From the NCBI GenBank assembly GCA_963666835.2, contig CAXXGO010000003.1, positions 544,001 to 608,000 on the forward strand: 64,000 bases of DNA. The letters run 5' to 3'. Each line of letters opens with the position of its first letter. The stretch's first letter is position 1. The notes under the pieces are model-generated. The model was given only the letters and a program-made list of their open reading frames with translations, was not told where the DNA came from and did no database searches. The DNA comes from Phycisphaerae bacterium. GTDB lineage: Bacteria > Planctomycetota > Phycisphaerae > UBA1845. Made by a program: the position numbers and the translations under genes. Shown in pieces: positions 11,066 to 39,687 of this stretch.

Positions 11066-11388
11066 CACTACCCTCACGAGCATGGTGAGGCCGGAACCTC
11101 GCCGGCCCGGCTCTCCACCCACCTCGAAAGCCCCCTTCACCACATCTTAACGCGTTCGAATCCGCGCCGAGCAGTATCCGGCAACAAATATTCTGTTTTT
11201 TGTCCGTCGTTTCGTCTCCGGCGGTGTTGTAACAGATGGATACGGGGATTCTGACCGGTTGTTCGAGTTTCGCCCGGCTGGCAGCCAACCGTTTGAGTTC
11301 GCCTTGGGGATAGGACACGGTGGTCGTTAGATCGCCGGTTTTGCATGGTTGCCCGCCAGACGTCGGATGGGGCGGCGAGTGTTGACTA

Positions 11389-11417
11389 TTGCACGGTTGT
11401 GTCGTTTGTGATGTAAT
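11389..11417 (+). promoter_or_regulatory. Putative sigma70-type promoter
   Basis: TTGCAC-N17-TGTAAT with TG extension, about 95 bp upstream of ATG 11511. Confidence 0.45.
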
Positions 11418-11510
11418 GCGGAAGTTCGGACACTGATCTGAAGTGTCTGAGCCGGATCGCAGGGATTCGCGGTGCAGAGCACCCGAAATTACTTCAGAGG
11501 GACTGTTGTC

Positions 11511-12644
11511 ATGACTAGCATATTTGGACAAGGGCGTCGGCGTAACGGCCACCCGGCCGGGTTCACGCTTATCGAACTGTTGGTGGTAATCGCCATCATC
11601 GCGCTGCTGATTTCGATTCTGCTTCCGTCGCTTGAGGCGGCGCGACGGCAATCGAAGCAGTCGGCTTGCCTGTCGCATATCAAGAACATCGCGACCAGCA
11701 GCCGAGTGTACGAGGCGGATGATCCCAATGGCTGGGGCATTCCGGTGCACCCCCTCACGTACTGGCAGGATCCGAATGATCCTAGCTTCATCGGGGCGTA
11801 CGAGTGGGGCGGGAAGTCCGGGATCGGTTCAGAGGGCTTCTGCATTGGACCGTCAGGTCAGTACGCGTTCCTCACCAGCAAGTACGGGACGAAGGCCGGG
11901 TTCGGCCCGGCAACGCGGCCGATGAATGACATCTTGTACCCCGCGGGCTTCAAGGACAACCTCCATACCCCAACGGGGTGGATCCGTCAGGGCTGCATTG
12001 ACGACACGAAGCTGGATCTCTCGTTGTTCAGTTGTCCGGCAGACGAAGGCCCGCCGCGTGGTGCGCATTGCCCGACCTGGATTGCTCATAGCGAGCGGTC
12101 CTCGTACGACCACTTCGGCACCAGCTTTGCGGCCAACCTCTTCATGACGTCGTTCGTTGGTGGTGGCCCGGTTTATAGTAACTCGCCATACATGCGCCCG
12201 ACGTCTCGCGTACCCACGCCGGCTCGGACGCTGTACTACGAGGAGAACATTGGTCGCTGGGCGTGGTGCTGCAAGAACGAGAAGCCTGACTGCGAGAGCA
12301 CGATTCCGGGACTTGCGATCGATCCAGGACCAACCAAGGTCATCACCGGCTGGCACGGCAAGAACTGGACGTTCAACCGCGCGTTTGTTGATGGCCACGC
12401 TGAAAACCAGCGTATCTTGATCGAAGGGACGGAGGATTCGGCAGGTTACTCGGAGCACTACCGGACCGAGGTGGTCTGGCCCGACGACGAAGAACAGCAG
12501 GCCCGCTCGGTCTGCATCATCGTCCGAGGTCCGGGCTGGCAAAAAGACACCCTGCCTGCGGAGTCGATCTACACTGGGCTGACGTTTAATGGTGACGGGC
12601 GCTACTCCTTCGACAGATGTGTCGGCGACGGCGCCATATATTAG
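11511..12644 (+). CDS. Prepilin-type N-terminal cleavage/methylation domain protein with H-X9-DG-type C-terminal motif (DUF1559-like)
   Basis: [25 protein letters not shown]...AR...[24 protein letters not shown]. Confidence 0.92.
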
Positions 12645-15291: not shown

Positions 15292-16620
15292 ATGGCTACG
15301 TCTTCGAAGAACCGGATAAAAGTGATCATTGTCGGGGCGGCCGGCCGCGATTTCCACGATTTCAATACCTTCTGGGGCAAGGACCCGCGGTATCAGGTCG
15401 TGGCATTTACCGCCGCGCAGATCCCCGATATCCACGGGCGCACGTACCCGCGCGTACTTGCCGGGAAGCGCTATCCGCGCGGTATCCCGATTGAGCCCGA
15501 AGAGAAACTCGCAGAACTGATCGAGAAGTATGATGTAGATCAGGTTGCCATGGCCTACTCCGATCTGCCGTACGAGCAGGTGATGCACAAAGCCGCCCTG
15601 GCCAACGCCGCCGGGGCGGATTTCCGGATTCTCGGCCCGCGCTACACGATGATCGAGTCGAAAAAGCCAGTCATCGCAGTTTGCGCCGTGCGGACCGGAT
15701 GCGGTAAGAGCCAGACCTCGCGGGCCGTCACCGAGGTTCTCAAGTCCATGGGCAAGCGGGTCGCGGCGATCCGCCATCCCATGCCGTACGGCGATCTGAC
15801 CAAGCAGATTTGCCAGCGGTTTGCCAAGTTGGAGGATCTCGACCTCCACGATTGCACGATCGAGGAACGCGAAGAATACGAACCGCACATTCAGGCAGGC
15901 AACATCGTTTTCGCCGGCGTGGACTACGGGAAGATCCTCAAGGCCGCCGAGAAGGAGGCTGACGTCATTCTCTGGGACGGCGGCAACAATGACACGGCCT
16001 TCTACAAGCCGGATCTGTACATTACCGTGGCCGACCCGCACAGGCCGGGACATGAGCTGTGCTACTATCCTGGCGAAACCAACGTCAGGCTCGCCGATAT
16101 CGTGGTCGTTAATAAGGTCGACACGGCCGATCCGAACGACGTCAAGCAGGTGGTGGCCAACGTCAAGTCGCTCAATAGCGACGCCAGGATCATCAAAGCT
16201 AAGTCCCCGGTCACGGTCAGCGATCCCGCAGCCGTCAAAGGGAAGCGCGTTCTCGTGGTGGAAGACGGTCCGACCCTCACTCACGGAGAAATGACCTTCG
16301 GTGCCGGTCATGTGGCGGCCAAGAAGTACGGTGCCCGGATGATCGTAGACCCGCGGCCGTTTGCCGTAGGCTCCATCAAAAAGACGTATCAGAAGTACAG
16401 CCACATGACGGAGATCCTCCCGGCCATGGGCTACGGCGCCAAGCAGATGAAGGAGCTCGAGCGGACGATCAACGCGGTGAAGTGCGATCTTGTCCTCATC
16501 GGCACGCCTATCGACCTGGCGCGGATGATGAAGATCAACAAGCCGAGCCTGCGAGTGAATTACGAACTGGGTAAGCCGGCGACCAGGGCGCTGCGCGACG
16601 CAATTGCGGAGGTCGTCTAG
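15292..16620 (+). CDS. arcE: Probable arginine synthetase (ArcE; family often labelled cyclic 2,3-diphosphoglycerate synthetase-like / predicted GTPase)
   Basis: N-terminal VIIVGAAGRDFHDFN...VVAFTAAQIPDI; P-loop AVRTGCGKSQTS; RHPMPYG, TIEEREEYEPH, WDGGNND, VEDGPTLTHG, PAMGYG; adjacent to carbamate kinase and OTCase genes. Confidence 0.82.
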   Translation: MATSSKNRIKVIIVGAAGRDFHDFNTFWGKDPRYQVVAFTAAQIPDIHGRTYPRVLAGKRYPRGIPIEPEEKLAELIEKYDVDQVAMAYSDLPYEQVMHKAALANAAGADFRILGPRYTMIESKKPVIAVCAVRTGCGKSQTSRAVTEVLKSMGKRVAAIRHPMPYGDLTKQICQRFAKLEDLDLHDCTIEEREEYEPHIQAGNIVFAGVDYGKILKAAEKEADVILWDGGNNDTAFYKPDLYITVADPHRPGHELCYYPGETNVRLADIVVVNKVDTADPNDVKQVVANVKSLNSDARIIKAKSPVTVSDPAAVKGKRVLVVEDGPTLTHGEMTFGAGHVAAKKYGARMIVDPRPFAVGSIKKTYQKYSHMTEILPAMGYGAKQMKELERTINAVKCDLVLIGTPIDLARMMKINKPSLRVNYELGKPATRALRDAIAEVV

Positions 16621-16796
16621 GGCCACCTCACGCCTCCAGGTTTTCGGGTGTGCCACTGCTCTTGAGCAGGGCGGCGCCACGGTACGAATGGAACGCGAAC
16701 CTCCAGGCGTGACAAAGCGCTAGACTTCGACGCTGGGCAGCGAAGTGCAGGCTGCAATGCCACAGCCGCATCGCACTTGTTTGCTGATGAAGGCCA

Positions 16797-16838
16797 CGCC
16801 GGGGCCGCCTGTTTCGGGCGGCGCCCGGCGTTTCTTTT
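16797..16838 (+). terminator. Rho-independent terminator between convergent arcE and arcC
   Basis: CGCCGGGGCCGCC-TGTTTCG-GGCGGCGCCCGGCG-TTTCTTTT. Confidence 0.6.
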
Positions 16839-16932
16839 GCATATGCCGGTTACGTTGCGCCGACTGGTCTGCGGCACGGCTCCGCGGTTTTTCAGAATCA
16901 CCGTGCGGTGCCTGCACCACGCGAGCAAACCG

Positions 16933-17895
16933 CTACTGCGCGGTGATTACGGTGCCGGCCTGCCCTACAATCGCTTGGGCGGCTTGGTCCAGAGACCCGA
17001 TGATCACCCGGGCATCGGCACGATCGGAACCACGTAGGAACTGGAGTGCCCCGGCGACCTTCGGCCCCATGGATCCCGCCCCGAACTGCCCGCTGTCGAG
17101 CCACTTCTGGGCCTCGTTGACGCTCAATCGGTCCAGCGCCTTCTCATCCGGCTTGCCGAAGTTGAGGCAGATTCGATCGACGTTGGTCAGGATCATCATG
17201 GTGTCGGCGCCCAACTCGCGGGCGAGCAGTGCGCTGGCGAGGTCCTTGTCGATTACCGCGCAGACCCCGTTCGTCCTGCCCTGCGAGTCTCGTACGACGG
17301 GGATCCCCCCGCCACCACAGGCGACCAGGAGGTCTCCAGCACGGACGGAACGCTTGATTAGCTCAATCTCCATCACGCGGCGGGGATGCGGTGACGGAAC
17401 CACTCGGCGAAACTTGCCCGGCTGAATTTCCTTGATGGTCCAACGCCCGTCACGGCGAAGTTCCTCGGCCTCCTCATCGCTCATGAAGCGACCGATGGGT
17501 TTGGTCGGCTCATCAAACGACGGATCGTCATGGTCGACCAGCACGGTCGTGATAATCGTATTCACCACGACGTTCTTGTGCCCGCGATCGCTTAATTCGT
17601 TGGCCAGGGTCTGGGCGATCATGAAGCCCATGCCGCCCTGGACGTGAGCTGAAGCCACCTCCATCGGCAACGGATAAACCGCCGTCGCTGCGGCATCGTT
17701 GCGGACCAGGAAGTTGCCGATCTGGGGGCCGTTGCCGTGAGTGACCACGAGTCGACACCCTCGCTCGACGAGATCGGCCAGCGGCTTCGCCGCCGCCCGG
17801 GAGTTGGCGAACTGGTCATCGACGTTCCCCTCCGAATCGGGGTCCGTAATTGCGTTTCCGCCGAGAGCTACGACTATCAGTTCGCCATCTGCCAT
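16933..17895 (-). CDS. arcC: Carbamate kinase
   Basis: VVALGGNA, THGNGPQIG, PTKPIG, RRVVPSP, GGGGIPV, AVIDKD, GSMGPKV; start ATG 17895. Confidence 0.96.
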   Translation of the reverse strand: MADGELIVVALGGNAITDPDSEGNVDDQFANSRAAAKPLADLVERGCRLVVTHGNGPQIGNFLVRNDAAATAVYPLPMEVASAHVQGGMGFMIAQTLANELSDRGHKNVVVNTIITTVLVDHDDPSFDEPTKPIGRFMSDEEAEELRRDGRWTIKEIQPGKFRRVVPSPHPRRVMEIELIKRSVRAGDLLVACGGGGIPVVRDSQGRTNGVCAVIDKDLASALLARELGADTMMILTNVDRICLNFGKPDEKALDRLSVNEAQKWLDSGQFGAGSMGPKVAGALQFLRGSDRADARVIIGSLDQAAQAIVGQAGTVITAQ

Positions 17896-18070
17896 AAGCC
17901 CAACCCAGCCAATAGTGCCAACCGCCCCGCCTGCCCAGGAAGTAGCCGGGAGCGTAGTTGTTATCAGGCATCCCCGCAACGCTCCGCGGGGAGTACTTCG
18001 GCCGCATTGTCGTCAAAGTTGAACGGGGTGCGCCCGACCTATTCCCAGCTCCGATTCGTCCCCACCCGGA

Positions 18071-18994
18071 TTAGCCGGCCAGATGAACCATCAGAGCCTT
18101 CTGCGCGTGCATGCGGTTCTCCGCCTGATCGAAGATCGCGGAGTTCGGTAGCCGCGACGTGGCGTAATCGATTTCCTCATCGTAGTGGGCCGGCAGACAA
18201 TGCAGCACAACCGCATCGGGCGCGGCGATCTTCATAATCTCGCCGTCTATGCGGTACTTGGCGAACGCGGTCCGCCGCGCGGCCGCCTCGTTCTCCTGCC
18301 CCATTGACGCCCACACATCCGTATAAAGAACATCCGCCCCGCGTGCCGCGGACAAGTCATTAGCAATCGTTATCTTGGATCCGGTAGTTGCCGCGGCATC
18401 GTTAGCCAGGGCAACCACGTCCTTCTGCGGCTCGTGCCCCGGCGGGGTAATTACGGTCATGTTCATCCCCACCCGAGCAGCACCGAGCATCAGCGAATTG
18501 GCAACGTTGTTCCCGTCACCGATGAAGCACATAGTCACGCCGTCGAGTTTGCCCTTGCGCTCCAGGACCGTTTGGAAGTCGGCCATGATCTGGCACGGGT
18601 GCTCGTAGTCGCTTAAGCCGTTGATGACCGGTACGGTTGCATGCTTGGCGAGTTCCTGCACGGTATCATGGCCGAACACTCGGGCCATTATCACGTCCAC
18701 ATAACGGGAAAGGACCAGCGCGATATCCTCGGTGGTCTCGCGTTTTCCCAGGCTGATGTCCGCGGGAGCCAGATAAATCGCATGCCCGCCCAACTGGGTC
18801 ATCCCAGTCTCGAAGGAGACTCGTGTACGTAGCGACGGCTTCAGGAAGATCATCGCCAGAGTCTTGCCCTGCAAATGCGACGAACCGGTTCCGGCCTCCT
18901 TCAGCTTCCGCGCAGTCTCAAGAACTTCCAGAATCTCCTCGGCGGAGAAATCCAACATGGAAACAAAATTACGACCCTTTAAATTCACAGCCAC
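18071..18994 (-). CDS. argF: Ornithine carbamoyltransferase (ArgF/ArcB; likely catabolic given context)
   Basis: FLKPSLRTRVSFE, HPCQ, GDGNNV, DVWASMG, HCLP, QAENR; GTG 18994 with GGAG RBS. Confidence 0.95.
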   Translation of the reverse strand: MAVNLKGRNFVSMLDFSAEEILEVLETARKLKEAGTGSSHLQGKTLAMIFLKPSLRTRVSFETGMTQLGGHAIYLAPADISLGKRETTEDIALVLSRYVDVIMARVFGHDTVQELAKHATVPVINGLSDYEHPCQIMADFQTVLERKGKLDGVTMCFIGDGNNVANSLMLGAARVGMNMTVITPPGHEPQKDVVALANDAAATTGSKITIANDLSAARGADVLYTDVWASMGQENEAAARRTAFAKYRIDGEIMKIAAPDAVVLHCLPAHYDEEIDYATSRLPNSAIFDQAENRMHAQKALMVHLAG

Positions 18995-19089
18995 GGCTAA
19001 TACTCCAGTCTTAGCCCTCCGCTCTGGGAGGGGCCAACCCCACTCGTAACGCAGGCTTCCAGCCTGCACCCACCAAACCGCGTCGCCGG

Positions 19090-20286
19090 TTACGACACCA
19101 CCTTGGCAATTCGCTCAACCGCCCAGTCAATATCATCCCGCGTAATGCACAACGGCGGAGCGAGACGCATGGTTTGCTCGTGCGTATCCTTGCACAGCAT
19201 ACCCTCGGCCTTCAGCTTCTCGCAGAAGTCCCGAGCCACGCCCGCCTCCGGGTGGAATTCAATCCCGAACCACAAGCCCCGTCCCCGGATCTCCTTGATC
19301 TTGTCTGTCTTGATCGCACGGAGTTTGCCCATCAGATACTCGCCGAGTTCCTTGGCGTTATCCTGGTATTTGTTGCTCTTGAGAATTTCGACGACCTTCC
19401 GGGCGACCGCACAAGCCAGAGGATTGCCGCCGAAGGTACTGCCATGACTCCCCGGGGTGAACACACTAAGTATGTCGCGAGATGAAACTACCGCGGAGAT
19501 CGGCATGATCCCGCCGCCCAGGGCTTTGCCCAAAATGTACATGTCCGGTTTGACGTCCTCGGTGTCGCAGCAGAAGGTCGCCCCACATCGCCCCAGACCG
19601 GCCTGAATCTCGTCGGCGATTAACAGGATGTTCTTCTCGGTGCATAACGTTCGCACTTGCTGCAGATAACCCGGCGGCGGCATGATGATCCCGGCCTCGC
19701 CCTGAATCGGCTCAACCAGAAACGCCACCGTATTGTCGTCGATCGCGTTGCGCAGGGCTTCGATATCACCGTATTCGACAATCTCGAATCCCGGCGTGAA
19801 CGGCCCGAACCCCTCGCGGCAGACCGGGTCCGTGCTGAAGCTGATGATCGTCGTGGTCCGCCCGTGGAAGTTGTCGCCGCAGCAGATCACTTTCGCCTGA
19901 TTCGCCGGGACCCCCTTCTTCTGGTACCCCCATCTCCGGGCGGTCTTGATCGCGGTCTCCACCCCTTCCGCGCCGGTGTTCATCGGCAGTACCATCTCCA
20001 TCCCGCACAGGGCCGCCAGCTCCCGGCACATCGGGCCGAGCTGATCGTTGTGAAAGGCCCGGGAGGTCAGGGTTACGCGGTCGAGCTGCAATCGAGCGGC
20101 CTCGATCAGCTCCTCGTGACCGTGCCCGAAGTTAACCGCCGAATAGGCCGCCAGCATGTCCATGTACCGGTTCCCGTCGACGTCCTCGACCCAGACCCCC
20201 TTGGCCTTGGAAACCACTACCGGCAGCGGGTGGTAATTGTGAGCGGCACACTCTTCGACCAACTCAATATGCTGCGACCCCGTCAT
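19090..20286 (-). CDS. rocD: Ornithine--oxo-acid aminotransferase
   Basis: AHNYHPLPVV, YSAVNFGH, LTSRAF, MNTGAEGVETAIK, EPIQGEAG, DEIQAG, LGKALGGG, HGSTFGGNPL; ATG 20286 with AAGGAG RBS. Confidence 0.95.
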   Translation of the reverse strand: MTGSQHIELVEECAAHNYHPLPVVVSKAKGVWVEDVDGNRYMDMLAAYSAVNFGHGHEELIEAARLQLDRVTLTSRAFHNDQLGPMCRELAALCGMEMVLPMNTGAEGVETAIKTARRWGYQKKGVPANQAKVICCGDNFHGRTTTIISFSTDPVCREGFGPFTPGFEIVEYGDIEALRNAIDDNTVAFLVEPIQGEAGIIMPPPGYLQQVRTLCTEKNILLIADEIQAGLGRCGATFCCDTEDVKPDMYILGKALGGGIMPISAVVSSRDILSVFTPGSHGSTFGGNPLACAVARKVVEILKSNKYQDNAKELGEYLMGKLRAIKTDKIKEIRGRGLWFGIEFHPEAGVARDFCEKLKAEGMLCKDTHEQTMRLAPPLCITRDDIDWAVERIAKVVS

Positions 20287-20756
20287 TGCGACCTGCTCCT
20301 TCTGAGCCTGCGAATTCATCAAGAACCGTCCTTTCGTTCCGAAGCTTCTCACCGCCGGTGGCCGGCTACCCGATACGCCCGGGCCGGTCGCTCGGGCAGA
20401 CCTCAACGCTCCCGACACCCCCGAAACACCAGCAAGCGGCGGGAGTATACTCAACCCGGAACAGCCTAATCAAGCAGCCGAAAGCTCGGAAAACACTGCG
20501 AACCGAGCTACCCCCTCCTATCGCGTTTAAACCCTGATATGAACCCTGAAAGCCGCTGGATTCCCCCAAAAAAAGGCCGCTGGGGCCGTGATCTTCGCGA
20601 CGCCGGAGTCGTCTTCCCGACCGCCGGGCACGTCCACACCGGGTACCGTAGGTCGAGCCCGACCTACTTGCCTGGACCTACGTCAGCGGCGGCGTTCTTC
20701 GTGGTCGCAAGGAGCGTAATCGGGGGTGAGTCTGTCCGGAGATGTTCCACGCCGAT

Positions 20757-30101: not shown

Positions 30102-30512
30102 CTATCCGAACATGGGCGGGCTATAATCCTGAGGCGCAAGTTCCTCGAACCGGTCCTCCGTCGGGTGCACCCAGGCTACCGGAGGGTGTTTCTCTTTCTT
30201 GATCTCGATCTTCATTCTGCCCTTCTTTCCTCTCTTCTTAAACGTCTTCTTTCTCATCCCATCAGACTTGTCGCGTCTCTTGCGGTCAATCTCCGCCGTG
30301 GTCTTATTGGTTCTGTCGTGGTGTTTCTTCGTCCTGGCCTTGTCATCAGACGCCGATGCACGCGTCTTCTTCCCTTTCACGACGCTCTGCTCTTCTATCC
30401 TCATCGCCTTCGAATCGGGCTCGCGCGAAACGAACCAGTACGTACTCCCTGCGCCCAGCACAAAAACACCCAGGATCACCGCCGAGATCATCTGCTTCTT
30501 GTCTTCAACCAT
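30102..30512 (-). CDS. Lys/Arg-rich single-TM hypothetical protein (136 aa), paralog A
   Basis: ATG 30512 with GGGAG RBS; TM ending LGAGSTYWFV; basic middle; tail PPVAWVHPTEDRFEELAPQDYSPPMFG. Confidence 0.8.
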   Translation of the reverse strand: MVEDKKQMISAVILGVFVLGAGSTYWFVSREPDSKAMRIEEQSVVKGKKTRASASDDKARTKKHHDRTNKTTAEIDRKRRDKSDGMRKKTFKKRGKKGRMKIEIKKEKHPPVAWVHPTEDRFEELAPQDYSPPMFG

Positions 30513-30645
30513 GATTGCTATCTCCCAAGAGGTGTGACTGTTCTTCCTGCTTTGCGTCCCTACCGGCATTGCACGACATGACGGCTACGCAAGCCGCCTC
30601 GACTTTGTGTCTCCACAGTGTCAGCAACACCGAATCAACACTTGA

Positions 30646-31008: not shown

Positions 31009-31425
31009 CTACGCGAAGCTGGGCGGCCGGAAATCCTGAATCTCCAGTTCCTCGAACCAGTCCTCCTGCGGAGGCATCCAAGCAGCCGGCGGGAGCTCCT
31101 TCTTCTTCTTCTCGATCTTCCTTCCGCCCCTGCTCCTTCTCTTCTTGGTAGTCTTCTTCTTCTCTCTATCGGATCTGTCGCGTGTTTTGCGCTCGACCCT
31201 CTCTGCCTTCGCCTCAGTCCTGTCGCGTGTTTTCTTCTTCTTCTTGGACTTATCGTCGTCTTCCGAAGAACGTCTCTTCTTCTTCTCCGTCGAGCTGGGG
31301 CCCTCCTTCAGCTTCATAGTCTGCGGACCGGTGTCACGAAGAACGAACCAGTAGGTGCTGCCCGCGCCCAATACAAGCACCCCCAGCACCCCCAGCATAA
31401 CCGTCTGTCTCTTATTGTCAGCCAC
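31009..31425 (-). CDS. Lys/Arg-rich single-TM hypothetical protein (138 aa), paralog B
   Basis: GTG 31425 with GGGAGG RBS; LGAGSTYWFV; KKKKK runs; tail PPAAWMPPQEDWFEELEIQDFRPPSFA. Confidence 0.8.
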   Translation of the reverse strand: MADNKRQTVMLGVLGVLVLGAGSTYWFVLRDTGPQTMKLKEGPSSTEKKKRRSSEDDDKSKKKKKTRDRTEAKAERVERKTRDRSDREKKKTTKKRRSRGGRKIEKKKKELPPAAWMPPQEDWFEELEIQDFRPPSFA

Positions 31426-31565
31426 GATAGCGACCTCCCATGAAGCAATACCGTACTTATCCTGCCCCCTGTAGCTGTATTCGACCAGTATGCGTGGTCG
31501 ATTCAGTCTCGTCAAGGAGCGTCGCCGGGCGGGCGCCGCGTCGCTGGCAAAGTCCGCCCTAATAA

Positions 31566-31594
31566 TAAGACGCCCGGGGCGTATTCCTGGTTCC
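31566..31594 (-). promoter_or_regulatory. ECF-sigma-type promoter for paralog B
   Basis: GGAAC-N17-CGTCTTA on the minus strand, about 140 bp upstream of the start. Confidence 0.55.
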
Positions 31595-31817
31595 ACACAT
31601 TCTCGCGGGATGACCAGCAGTACGCCCGCGTCCGGTTTTCACACCCCTCTGCGATCGGCCCTCCGGAATAAGTTCGCTCGTGAGCGAAAACGGTGCTGCG
31701 ACGGCGTGTTGATTCGACAATCTGATCTGCTAACCTGCGTTCGGTCTTGTTATTGCATGCAGTCCCGCGGGTTGAACGTGGGCCCGTGTAACTAATAATT
31801 CAAGGGTGACAGTCGCC

Positions 31818-34801: not shown

Positions 34802-37800
34802 CTACGAGTTGGGGCCGGTGAAGTTGGTCTGCAGGATTGCATAATCGGCAACGTCGACGTCGCAATCGTCGTCAAGATCGCCAACGGTGCTACCATCGGG
34901 ATTAATCTCAGCCCCGTTCGGCGTCAGGTCACAGACATCATCGTCATTGGTCACCCCGTCGCCGTCGATATCGACATCGCAAGCATCACCGGTTCCGTCA
35001 CCGTCGAAGTCTTCCTGGTCCGGATTGGGTTCGCTCGGGCAATTGTCAGAATCATCAACGACTCCATCACCATCAGAATCGTTCAGTATCGTCAGATCGA
35101 TATCGTCGACCACCCCGTCGCAATTGAAGTCGCCATCCGCCCAACCGCAACTGTCATCGCTGTTGCATCCGGCGGAGCCGGCCGCCATAGTCGCCAGAAC
35201 GATGACCTCATCATCAGTATTCCGAACACCATCCAGATTGGCGTCACCGTACTCGGTTCCCAGGATGACCTCTACTAGCTCCCGGACGTCCTCGGTGTCG
35301 ACCGCCATGTCGCCATTCATATCACAGCTCAGGTCCATCATCACGGCCTCAGCCAGATTCGACCAATCTCCCAGATTGCGGCAAACATAGTCAATATCGC
35401 GCGAATCGACCAAGCCGTCCCAACCCAACGGTTGAGCTCCGGCCACAGGACCAGTCTTCGTATCGCCGGCAACATCGCCGCGGAAATCTCCGGGAGCGTA
35501 GGCCTTGCCGGTCTTCAGAAGGCCGCCGATGTCAGTCGGAGCGTTGAAAGTCGGGTCGGCGGGCGGGGCCGCCGGCGGAACGAGTTGAGGTCCCCGATCA
35601 GCCCAAGGATAGGGCAGGCCGACGTCCGCCAGCGCCAGGTCAATAGCAACCGCTCCATCCTTCCGGTTGAGTTGTCCGTCGTTCATGGCCAGCCCATCGG
35701 CAAAGTAGCGCAGATCCTCCTTCGTCAGGTTCCCATCGCCGTCAAAGTCGCCGATCACTTCGGGAATCGCGTTATCCGCGTCCATATCGCCGATATCGCC
35801 GGATCCGGTCGCAACACCGGTGCGTTGCCAGCTTCGCGGCGCGAAGAAAGCCTTGACTAACTCGGTAGCATCATCCAGATCTCGAACGGCATCACCGTTG
35901 AAGTCGCCTTGGATCCGGTTCCGTTCCGCCAACTCCAATCCGGAGCTCACCGTGTCATAGCCGGCACCATCCCAGTAGTAGTAGCTGCCTGTACCGGAGC
36001 CGTCGGAATAGACCCCGCGACGCGACAATAGCGAGTTACGTTTGGGCACGAGCCCGGCTTCGTTGTTGGAGCCGTATGGATCCGTGTCGCCGCCCCAACC
36101 CATGCCGTTGTAGCGGCGTGCGAACTCTTGAAGGTCTGCGTTCGGCAGCACCCGTTCCGGATACTCGGTCGGATTCAGTACGTTGTGGACACAGTCAATA
36201 CCAGCGGGCAAAAAGAACGTGGTAGCCAAGTCCTGCCCCGGCATATTCGCAGCAGACTTGCAGTAGTCGGCGGGATACATGTGGCAATCGCTGTCGTGAA
36301 CGCACTCTTGAATCACACAGTGGTTCTCATTACCTGGACAATCCCCGTCCGCGACGCAAACGACTGCACAATCTCCAGTCAGTCCGGCGGCGACACAGTC
36401 GTCGTCGCCGTCGCATGCTATCGTTGGATCCTCCACGCACACCGCGGTCTCGCACACTCGGCTAGTGTTGCAGATATCCTCCTCCACGCCGGTGGTGAAG
36501 TCATCGATAGCATCGAAGATGTTGTTCAAGTACTCCGCAACCTGCTGATTGTCCAAAGGTGGATTGCTTGCTGCTACAGCAGTGTCATACTTATCCCGAT
36601 GACTCCAAACGCAGAGATCATTCGACGTCGCGCAATCCTGGTCATCGAAACACATCTCGGGGTTTGCGCTACCCAGGGTCGACTCGCACCATCCGTGTCG
36701 ATTCCGGTTCGGATCACCTCGCACACTGAAGGAGCCGCTCCCGGCAATCTGATAACCGAGGCACGGATCGCAATTGTCCAGAATCGCGTCAATCGTCGGA
36801 CGAACGTAGTTGTCCGGCGTATTGCAGGCGGTTTCCCCTGTGTCCTTCCACACGCCGAGAATCTCGTACTTCCCGCCCCGGGCGTCCTTAGCCGCGCGGC
36901 TCGAGCCGGCCACCCCGGTATATCCGACAGCCAGGCGTCGATTCTGCACGGCGTTTTCCATAATACTCGATCCACCGCAGTTCGATGCTTGATGATCGGG
37001 ACCGAGATTAGTCAGACTGGTGATCTTGACTTCGTCGCCGATGTTATCCCCACGACCCCAACTCGTGTCGATCCCGAGAGTACTCATCGCTGCGTTACGC
37101 GTACCGGAGCCAACGTCACGAGTGGCGGCCACGAGGTTCTCACCGTTGGGCAAGCGCCCGCTGGTGAAGAGATACTGGGCCTCGCTGAACTTGACGCTGT
37201 CCCGGCCCGTACCACGATTCGAGATAATGGCTACCGGCACCCACGCCGCCACAAAGTCGAAGATCGTATCTTCGTTGGGGTCGGGGTTCGCCGGATTGTC
37301 AGACCGCCACGTATTCAGCGACTTGCTCACGTCGCGCAGAACACAGGTCTCGCCTTCCGGGCAGTCGCCGTCCTCCCCGCACGGATCGCCGCTCGTATCG
37401 CACCAACCGAAAACACAAATCTCGACTGGCTCACAGGTTTGGCCGTGATTGCAGGCGTAGTCGCCGCAGCACGCCCGACCGGTGAAACTCGTTCCGTCGT
37501 GGCACTCCTTCAGAGGGCAGTGGTCTTCGGCGGAGTAGCAGGGCATCGGTACGCAGGGCCCGTTAAGCCCCAAGGCCGTGCAATCCGAGGTAGACTCGCA
37601 AGATGTCCGATGGTCATCTCCGCACCAATTGCTGCTGCTGCAAGCCCCTAGCTCTCTTGTTAGACTCGCAAGTTGGCTGATGTTTCCACTGGACGACGGG
37701 ACCGGGCACGTTCCATACCCATCCCCGGCCGGTGGAGTATCCCAGGCAGCGGCACCTTCCGGTCCACGCACGCCCCACGCCCCCGGCACGTCCATGAATG

Positions 37801-38404
37801 CGAATTCGATTTCGCACGGTACGAAGGGCGTCCCACTGCAATGGGTCCCAACGGACTCCGGGATACCCTCGGAACAATACTCGTAGTGTTGAATAAGGCC
37901 GCGTTCCGTCGGCGGCAATACCGGGATTGCTCCGATTGTCTGATTCTCGACGAACTCGTTGAGCCCGTTAACCGAACCGACACTGCGATACTGGAACATC
38001 CACCACCACGGTTGGGTCTGCGGATACATTCCCACCAGTTGGTCCGTGAAAGGAAAAGTCGGCAGTTGTCCTGCAAAACCATCGCCATCGACGTCGATCC
38101 AGTCGTTTGTGGAAGCGGGCCGACTGAAGAAATCGGCAAACAGGCTTGCTCCCGACCCACTGACCTGACCCCCATCGGTCAAGAACCCGGGTTCGTTGAT
38201 CGGGCCTTCCGTGCAGCAGCCGTTATCAAAAACGCACACCTCGCCATCAGTGCAATCCGCATCCTCCCAACAGGGCAGCAACGTCCCCGAGCCGGCGGAG
38301 GAAGCGTCATCACAGTAGCCCACGCAGTCCGCCACAGTCCTCGTTGACCAAGATAACATCATCCCGCACACAGCAAGCAACCACGCCATTCTCGCTCGTT
38401 TCAT
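34802..38404 (-). CDS. 1200-aa secreted PstS/DING-like phosphate-binding-fold protein with Cys-rich inserts, dockerin-like and TSP3 repeats
   Basis: Signal peptide; PstS-like motifs in order [51 protein letters not shown]-terminal [13 protein letters not shown] and [14 protein letters not shown]. Confidence 0.8.
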
Positions 38405-38477
38405 CGTCGGTCCTTTCTCTCTGCCTGTCCTTCCTTTTTCCCTCCACCGAATTCACTCCACCCCACCTTTGCTAGCA

Positions 38478-39542
38478 TCAATCGTCCATCATATTCGGGT
38501 CCATATTCAGAACGTCACTGGCGCCGGTCAGGGAGTAGTATCGGTCACCCCACAAGCGTTTGCGGACGGACTCCAACGGCATCAAGGGCTCAACGTGTCC
38601 GTCGCAAAACAAGAAGTTCGCGGTCCCGCCGAATCGCTCTCGAAGTCGCTTATCCCCGCCGGGATGATGGCGTCCGACAGCGTTCATCTGCGATACCCCC
38701 GAACTGTGATCGAGGATGTTGACTTTGTTCTTGACATCCTTGCTCTCGAGCAGTCCATAAGTCACTTGGTCATGCTGGAGTCCGTACAAGAAGCCCGACG
38801 CCTGGGGAGCGGCCTCGTATTCGTTGAAGCCGGATCCCACATGGTAGAACGGGTTCACCGGGCGATGCGATTTAACGAGGACCCCCTCGCCGGTTTGAAT
38901 ACCTAGAGCCCGCCAGTTATTGAGGAACTCTGTGGCAACGATGGTCTTTCCCGCCGACCGTATCCGGTTCTCGCGAACAAACTGATTCACGCGTTGGCCA
39001 CCGGACAGTTCCGGCGTGAACTTGTTGCGAGGAATGATCGCCGCGTTGGCGGTGTAGGCCATTCGCGAAGCCTGTTTATCCTGTAGCTCATTCGGCTTGT
39101 CGTCCGAGTTCTGATCTACCTGTTCACCCATTTCCCAATCACTCTCGACCAATCCGGGGTTTGTCCGCGGAGCTCCTCCATGCTCCATCTCCGGGCACTG
39201 AAAGGCCTTTGTCGCTGCCTCACCGGCTTCATACAGGAAGTATGACCAGTGGATGTAGCCGTGTGGATGATTGGCCGTCTGGCTGGCGAGGGACCAGTTG
39301 CCTTCTTCGTCGTCCGGATACAGATAAGCGGTCGGGTACGTCGAGTTCGATACATACAAGTAGTTTGCCAGCGCCTTTCCGATGTGATTAAGATTAGTCG
39401 CGCAAACCACAGCGCGGGTGTGCTTGCGCGCATGACTCAAACTGGGGAGCAGAATCGCCATGAGCATGGCAATGATCGAGATCACCACCAGTAGCTCGAT
39501 GATCGTGAACGCTCCACAAGAAGGCCCTCGATACTTAGTCAT
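38478..39542 (-). CDS. Prepilin-type N-terminal cleavage/methylation domain protein with H-X9-DG-type motif
   Basis: GAFTIIELLVVISIIAMLMAILLPSL...AR...C..NL; FQCP; GRHH...ANFLFCDGHV. Confidence 0.92.
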   Translation of the reverse strand: MTKYRGPSCGAFTIIELLVVISIIAMLMAILLPSLSHARKHTRAVVCATNLNHIGKALANYLYVSNSTYPTAYLYPDDEEGNWSLASQTANHPHGYIHWSYFLYEAGEAATKAFQCPEMEHGGAPRTNPGLVESDWEMGEQVDQNSDDKPNELQDKQASRMAYTANAAIIPRNKFTPELSGGQRVNQFVRENRIRSAGKTIVATEFLNNWRALGIQTGEGVLVKSHRPVNPFYHVGSGFNEYEAAPQASGFLYGLQHDQVTYGLLESKDVKNKVNILDHSSGVSQMNAVGRHHPGGDKRLRERFGGTANFLFCDGHVEPLMPLESVRKRLWGDRYYSLTGASDVLNMDPNMMDD

Positions 39543-39646
39543 CTCCGATGCTCCTTTGCAAACGTGCAGGTACGTCTCACAACCCGGGCAACTGCGATCG
39601 GCCGCACCCCGGACAACCCGACCGCCTGCAGGATTCTCGGAATGCT

Positions 39647-39687
39647 CAGTTAAGGAAGGATGAGCCGTTTGTTAAACTTCGGTCAAG
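39647..39687 (-). promoter_or_regulatory. Putative Pho-box-like direct-repeat array (OmpR/PhoB-family site)
   Basis: Minus strand CTTGACCGAAG|TTTAACAAACG|GCTCATCCTTC|CTTAACTG, four half-sites at exact 11-bp period, about 105 bp upstream of the prepilin start. Confidence 0.6.

Follow-up and report, generated by a model that had tools for sequence, protein, structure and literature searches.

Why would a bacterium place a pilin gene and a giant protein resembling the phosphate receptor PstS together behind an array of Pho-box-like repeats? The question is raised by a locus of a Phycisphaerae bacterium (GenBank assembly GCA_963666835.2, contig CAXXGO010000003.1), within a 64,000-nucleotide stretch (positions 544,001 to 608,000 of the contig; hereafter the window), where a first-pass annotation made from the sequence alone had proposed a phosphate-starvation module. 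All genes of the locus lie on the minus strand, in the order sixA, a 266-bp gap, a gene for a 354-aa prepilin-like protein (38478..39542), a 73-bp gap and a gene for a 1200-aa exported protein (34802..38404), so that the two-gene layout and its gap are as first described. We propose that the larger product, here called the binder, is a Pho-regulated phosphate catcher that is exported and displayed by its cognate pilin adaptor, a reading to which we give somewhat better than even chances. The pilin-binder pair is real, conserved and apparently undescribed. We found no description of it in look-ups by sequence, words and relatives or in the open-access literature, subscription papers and preprint supplements being outside the scope of the search. 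The module would be a variant form of extracellular phosphate scavenging, with a novel pilin partner.

A conserved gene pair behind a Pho-type array

The synteny of pilin and PstS-like genes, which the earlier annotation had suggested examining, was conserved. The binder was present in 49 of 201 genomes of the class, with 50 matches, and for each of the 50 the cognate pilin lay on the same strand, no more than 2 kb upstream. At 72 orthologous loci, obtained from the best 80 of 445 stretches, the cognate pilin was detected at 66, and five of the six misses were at contig ends. The two sets overlap partly and their members are kin, not independent cases; two record titles in the 72-locus set carry non-planctomycete labels. 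A sample of the phylum gave 10 hits of 301, all inside the class, and homologues with names were Phycisphaerae hypothetical proteins; the binder family was found in no other class. The pair lies between phoBR and pstSCAB in some relatives. A pstS gene was present within 6 kb at 9 of the 72 loci and a phoB-phoR-like pair at 10, and the order phoB-phoR-pilin-binder-pstS was observed at five (L011, L030, L039, L054 and L056). Only pstS and paired phoB-phoR were counted, because labels such as pstB, phoU and lone phoB or phoR may represent generic homologues. The position of sixA just upstream (40279-39809, minus strand; it passes TIGR00249) was correctly noted before, but a link to the module did not hold: sixA was absent from all 72 orthologous loci and is thus a chance neighbour, ruled out as a module member.

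Upstream of the pilin gene, positions 39687-39649 of the minus strand contain the four half-sites that had been reported (CTTGAC, TTTAAC, GCTCAT and CTTAAC; consensus approximately CTTAAY), separated by cgaag, aaacg and ccttc, with a period of exactly 11 bp. As had also been stated, no pstCAB genes are nearby; the pst operon is located about 400 kb away on the same contig (C3 171-181 kb, order phoB-phoR-porin-pstS-pstC-pstA-pstB-phoU). Before the porin gene of this cluster, whose promoter had been named as the place to look for the motif, we found CTTAGC, CTTAAC, CTGAAT and GTTAAT with the same 11-bp period. The probable -10 hexamer GAGAAT (39633..39638, minus strand, 16 bp from the start of the last half-site) is identical in sequence and offset at the two promoters, and a -10-like hexamer occurred at this offset, the commonest one, in 9 of 42 orthologous arrays scored. 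A generic sigma-70 scan revealed no minus-strand promoter, and terminators were not beyond chance.

When a matrix was built from the pst site alone, the window site ranked 5th in 6.0 Mb (both strands), and the pst site likewise ranked 5th with a matrix built from the window site alone. Six further arrays of the genome, which were picked from the lists of earlier matrix scans and so are not wholly independent of the target, were built into another matrix; with it the window site scored 23.3 bits, a score attained by 1 of 4000 random 430-bp genomic stretches (99.9th percentile, 10.0 bits). Across 62 orthologous pilin upstream regions, the mean best three-unit score was 11.2 bits at period 11, compared to 1.4, 0.2, 1.2 and 1.1 bits at periods 9, 10, 12 and 13, and scores of at least 15 bits were reached in 15 regions at period 11, compared to 2, 0, 0 and 0 at the other periods. 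At period 11, eight regions upstream of pst or porin genes in orthologous loci scored 10-30 bits; of three more pstS promoters from relatives, two scored 12-14 bits. With the 11-bp-period box of the pst promoter, the locus is a probable member of the Pho regulon, and judging from this box the two-gene module is likely switched on by phosphate starvation. We infer that PhoB binds the window array and that this regulator is the PhoB encoded beside pst; a second PhoB-like regulator with its own array also occurs in the genome.

The SphR Pho box of cyanobacteria is given as CTTAACCT plus a 3-bp linker in three or more copies (PMC1906773). By its sequence, the window array matches this box: both have CTTAAC-type half-sites, an 8+3 = 11-bp period and at least three copies, and arrays of both kinds are found before pst genes. 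The array described here belongs to Phycisphaerae.

Predicted fold, pocket and tail of the giant protein

The 1200-aa protein has a signal peptide, as read by eye, and carries the PstS-like motifs GSGASLF, YRSVGS, FMD, RDVGSGT and VGY in the order originally claimed, with Cys-rich inserts between them. At the level of sequence families, little of this was visible. The PstS family model PF12849 gave no match at E 0.1, and the only Pfam domain was TSP_3. With the binder-family profile, PstS chains came up at no better than E 0.07-0.27. Comparing profiles against single PstS sequences gave little signal (probability 1% with E. coli PstS and 7.5% with the PstS of this genome), and a whole-protein sequence search of the PDB returned only thrombospondin type 3 and weak dockerin matches. 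The family itself is closed: it comprised 230 proteins among 7990 candidates, and 526 representatives at E 0.001 among 1.84 billion, with no spill into ordinary PstS.

Structure prediction gave a different picture. The core (residues 78-745; 36170..38173, minus strand), which includes non-conserved Cys-rich inserts at approximately 254-358, 566-600 and 645-718, was modelled with pLDDT 79 and pTM 0.79, residues 254-330 being unresolved (pLDDT under 50). The structure comparison proposed earlier found the expected fold: the model matched PstS structure 4ecf with Z 21.7 and rmsd 3.4 over 247 of 260 residues, ranks 1-13 were all phosphate-binding proteins, and the first other protein had Z 13.2. 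Foldseek agreed on PstS, though with low TM-scores. In the model, then, the core has a two-lobed periplasmic binding protein (PBP) type II fold nearest to phosphate binders.

The positions of the predicted phosphate pocket were also kept. By motif mapping, T10, F11, S38, D56, R135, S139, G140 and T141 of E. coli PstS, whose pocket roles we take as established, correspond to S87, L88, S144, D205, R429, S433, G434 and T435. Each of the eight positions was kept in 69-73 of 73 sequences, the misses being gaps or fragments, and they were also kept in a divergent binder subgroup. From these alignments, the protein appears to have a complete eight-residue phosphate pocket with the selectivity Asp (D type). 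Such an Asp is the mark of high-affinity D-type PstS (PMC13614923, PMC5381212). The genome's own PstS has Ser, not Asp, at the matching motif, as read by eye, and the giant protein may therefore bind phosphate more tightly.

A reading in which the ligand is a phosphorylated or mineral surface (organophosphate, polyphosphate, a nucleic acid end or apatite), with the protein acting as an adhesin or as a substrate tether for co-regulated surface nucleases, has to be considered here. It would account for the size of the core, which is about 430-470 residues even in compact members compared to about 250-320 in PstS, for additional invariant residues close to the pocket (R140, R436 and N437 among them), and for the lamin-tail and endonuclease/phosphatase surface proteins in the regulon. 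However, all eight direct-ligand positions are kept, the selectivity Asp included, and sulfate-, glucose-6-phosphate (G6P)- and tungstate-binding proteins matched the core with Z 11-12, compared to 15-22 for phosphate binders. We consider this reading improbable.

Compared to PstS/PBP_like_2 proteins (E. coli PstS; PDB 4ecf, 4gd5 and 7dm1), the binder shares the fold over the whole core (Z 21.7-15.4), the pocket residues and Pho-type regulation. It differs in that it has no PF12849 match, is 12-19% identical, has an enlarged core and a 300-450-aa Asp-rich tail, always follows a pilin, and occurs in this genome, which has a separate canonical PstS, as well as in genomes without pstC. The first-pass label PstS/DING-like was right for PstS and wrong for DING. 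Membership in DING was rejected: there is no DINGGG mature start, the start motif is preceded by a Cys-rich segment, the family reads QVNxSGATLF, and DING-type structures rank below ordinary PstS for the core (5jk4, Z 15.4; Foldseek ranks 35-50). A GAT-L motif is nevertheless common to the binder and Pseudomonas DING (PMC2225411, PMC3949141).

The C-terminal region had been described as ending in dockerin-like and thrombospondin type 3 repeats. The latter passed its cut-off (TSP_3, 33.7 bits against 25; residues 1131-1163; 34916..35014, minus strand), and the dockerin likeness was weak (residues 1051-1107, E 0.17-4 in the PDB search). An Asp-rich block at residues ~830-1107 (35084..35917, minus strand) is conserved among relatives and consists of dockerin-like, probably calcium-binding loop pairs. 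The Cys-rich inserts and the thrombospondin type 3 tail are missing from many relatives, in which the TSP_3 residues are mostly gaps, and are, on this comparison, lineage-specific decoration. Tails of relatives vary (dockerin-like, GC-type dockerin or PEP-CTERM-like, the PEP motifs being read by eye); NF041540, the GC-type dockerin model, was found in three of five tails tested. These tails resemble known sorting-type domains.

The pilin and its predicted grip on the binder

The assignment of the first gene to prepilins of the H-X9-DG type was upheld by TIGR02532 (18.4, cut-off 16.3) and TIGR04294 (20.7, cut-off 19), while DUF1559 (PF07596) was under its cut-off (17.2 of 23.3). The sequence predicts a class III signal with cleavage at A11|F12, E at +5 and P at +22, all invariant in the subfamily. 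The protein bears both the GFxxxE signal and the C-terminal H-X9-DG motif. Its model (pLDDT 94.9) consists of a long helix, an insertion of about 200 aa and C-terminal strands closing the pilin fold; the core fold is preserved. All 22 structural matches were type IV pilins or pseudopilins, spanning residues 1-320, with Z of only 2.1-4.7. As modelled, the protein thus has the long helix and C-terminal sheet of a pilin, at low Z. Foldseek gave no match at E 0.001, sequence search found no solved structure covering more than the first helix and no solved relative of the head, and Atlas neighbours of the head were unnamed clusters. The pilin has many conserved basic motifs. In common with other H-X9-DG-CTERM (TIGR04294)/DUF1559 prepilin-like proteins, for which no function was found in the literature searched, it has a GFxxxE N-terminus and a C-terminal DG motif above cut-off. 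It differs in belonging to a tight subfamily (mean column identity 44%) tied to one partner gene; the subfamily HMM gave the window pilin 428 bits and the other 31 pilin-like ORFs of the genome at most 12.

A complex was predicted for the compact orthologous pair of locus L070, trimmed to 717 and 278 residues. It scored 0.65, compared to 0.00 for the best of three controls. Of 157 solved complexes, 116 attain the mark it passed, as do 2 of 215 mismatched pairs, figures that are only rough here, where our own alignments were used. Runs shared at least 58% of contacts, and pLDDT of the partners was at least 74. In this model, the pilin insertion, mainly head residues 159-210, contacts the PstS core and not the tail, touching segments of both core halves. 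Inter-chain covariation was weak: the 25 best contacts exceeded entropy-matched columns (p 0.001), and the model used the same alignments. A mirror-tree correlation of r 0.75 between pilin and binder was given no weight, because shared ancestry alone gives such values. The two proteins are predicted to bind each other, and we know of no comparable complex.

Several members of the pilin subfamily occur without a binder. Twelve unpaired pilin loci were inspected, two of them cut by contig ends, and a binder was found at none. Among the members without a binder (L103 and L108-L114), L108, L109 and L111 keep array scores of 12-13 bits, and at L113 two small PEP-CTERM-like proteins stand behind the pilin in place of the binder.

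These orphans bear on the idea that the two genes are co-regulated and nothing more, the pilin being a phosphate-starvation pilus subunit, perhaps itself phosphate-binding, and the binder a freely secreted DING-like scavenger. Adjacency in 50 of 50 matches, in fixed order and across deep divergence, speaks against such independence, as do the complex prediction with its controls at 0.00 and the covariation at predicted contacts, with the dependence just mentioned. The three orphan pilins that retain arrays, the position of the conserved basic motifs outside most of the predicted interface, and the low conservation of that interface would be easier to explain if the pilin had a role of its own. 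On balance, mere co-regulation seems to us a poor candidate, at least as improbable as a surface ligand.

Proposed export and uptake, and the wider regulon

The genome encodes four PilT proteins above cut-off, five secretins, a prepilin peptidase and three TonB-dependent receptors. Exported proteins that end in a dockerin-like or CTERM tail stand next to five of its eight H-X9-DG-type pilins, compared to 2 of the 18 remaining pilins and 126 of 4401 other genes, by crude gene calls and regular expressions; two more pilin-cargo operons lie behind Pho arrays. A pilin-carried catcher is therefore favoured over a periplasmic receptor or sensor, a binder of another ligand and mere co-regulation. In the proposed mechanism, PhoB would bind the four half-sites and switch on the operon at phosphate starvation. 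Prepilin peptidase would cut the pilin, which would enter a pilus or pseudopilus as a minor subunit. Its insertion domain, as predicted for the orthologous pair, would grip the PstS core of the Sec-exported binder and bring it to or through a secretin, and the dockerin-like or PEP-CTERM tail would then hold it. The Asp-type pocket would take up phosphate tightly, and phosphate would move via the porin to PstSCAB or PiT.

The binder is probably not the receptor that serves the ABC transporter. A separate canonical pstS is part of the genome's pst operon, and pstC was not found in 11 of 49 binder carriers, two of which are single-contig genomes; PiT was present in all 11. These carriers are near-complete Phycisphaerae genomes (G046, G095 and nine others), in each of which the pilin-binder module is present. 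A Na/Pi cotransporter was rejected as the downstream importer, being found in 0 of 12 genomes and in none of the 11 carriers without pstC.

Retention of the pair in these 11 genomes, where PhoR needs another input, would also suit a periplasmic role, in which an unpolymerised pilin-like protein uses its N-terminal helix to hold the binder at the inner membrane and either concentrates phosphate for PiT or Pst or signals PhoR. Filament genes are absent from the conserved neighbourhood and the pair is often directly behind phoB-phoR; moreover, an interface on both halves of the PstS core could read its open and closed states. On the other hand, the class III cleavage site, E5 and P22 are invariant and the pilin core fold is preserved, the tails and the large variable Cys-rich inserts suit a surface protein, and the excess of tail-bearing exported proteins beside H-X9-DG-type pilins over background genes, by the crude count above, points the same way. 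We regard the periplasmic role as unlikely, but as an alternative to be taken seriously.

Several observations weigh against a pilin-displayed catcher. The evidence is wholly computational, and the window pair itself was not folded, the L070 proteins being only 41% and 38% identical to it. Predicted interface columns were less conserved than average on both chains (0.37 compared to 0.56, the latter not a surface-only baseline). Locus L027 has a binder without the cognate pilin, and 16 of 66 pilin hits had no binder behind them, some of these hits being strong (E 1e-86, 1e-81 and 1e-58). In some orthologues the array is faint or missing: only 15 of 62 reach 15 bits, and several are near zero. 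At the position of E. coli D137, the partner of R135, the family has V, S or A, with an Asp one residue earlier. No secretin, ATPase or platform gene was found among conserved neighbours of the 72 loci, and PEP-CTERM forms are membrane-anchored, which suits display and not riding a filament.

The closest parallels are in Pseudomonas. The DING protein Psp is exported by the Hxc type II system (PMC2225411), and PstS/DING surface appendages have been reported (PMC3949141). Like the proposed system, these involve an extracellular binder linked to phosphate limitation and machinery of the type IV filament family, upstream of Pst uptake. By contrast, no type II cluster was found beside the binder, whether around its gene in the window or among the gene clusters that neighbour the 72 loci; its predicted binding partner is a single dedicated pilin subfamily, and it has an anchoring tail of its own. 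Two further reports deal with other phosphate-starvation export and planctomycete dockerin systems, not with this pair (PMC2996285, PMC6461901).

Other Pho-type arrays were detected in the genome. Locus L076 (G000:C1:1847930-1856269) has an array that precedes a further H-X9-DG-like pilin gene, behind which come genes for a dockerin-like protein and two lamin-tail proteins; it is a second pilin-plus-cargo operon of the same regulon. Locus L074 (G000:C3:191384-205285) contains three arrays in one cluster: the first before the second PhoB-like regulator, the second before a 1038-aa lamin-tail/IPTL-CTERM protein, and the third before a 373-aa AAA_17 protein, followed by what we take to be a transposase-like ORF, a pilin, an IPTL-CTERM protein and a double endonuclease/phosphatase protein. 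The array at L075 (G000:C6:41342) is among the strongest of the genome and has no clear long ORF ahead; a presumably transposase-like gene lies about 1.5 kb downstream. Within the window, positions 11113-12644 contain a second prepilin-like gene (390 aa, with a DG motif) that has a weak 11-bp array, ranked 10-11 in two of three scans; the gene of a membrane TPR protein comes next. In addition, two tandem similar small proteins (30102-30569 and 31009-31596), each with a single hydrophobic segment and a tail very rich in Lys and Arg, matched no Pfam family above cut-off. A cluster at 15292-20454 presumably encodes, judged by eye, a GTPase-like protein, carbamate kinase, ornithine carbamoyltransferase and ornithine aminotransferase.

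A broader idea, which we put forward tentatively and think rather unlikely, is that H-X9-DG pilins form a modular address system, each binding one cognate surface nutrient catcher and linking it to a type IV filament whose retraction would draw scarce nutrients through the outer membrane, in place of TonB/SusCD-type capture in planctomycetes. The phosphate pair would be its cleanest case, the pilin's grip on the PstS core letting retraction deliver and unload phosphate.

In this study, a Pho box is defined for Phycisphaerae, and phosphorus acquisition in this widespread environmental class gains an unannotated PstS-fold family that is invisible to Pfam. To our knowledge, few unexplained families have expanded as far in planctomycetes and their relatives as the H-X9-DG/DUF1559 pilin-like proteins. 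The locus offers for one of them a specific partner, a ligand suited to textbook assays, an inducing condition and a predicted interface, and with these at hand the function of an H-X9-DG pilin becomes a simple bench question. Carrying a phosphate catcher to the cell surface, as this pilin likely does, would be the first concrete job for the family.

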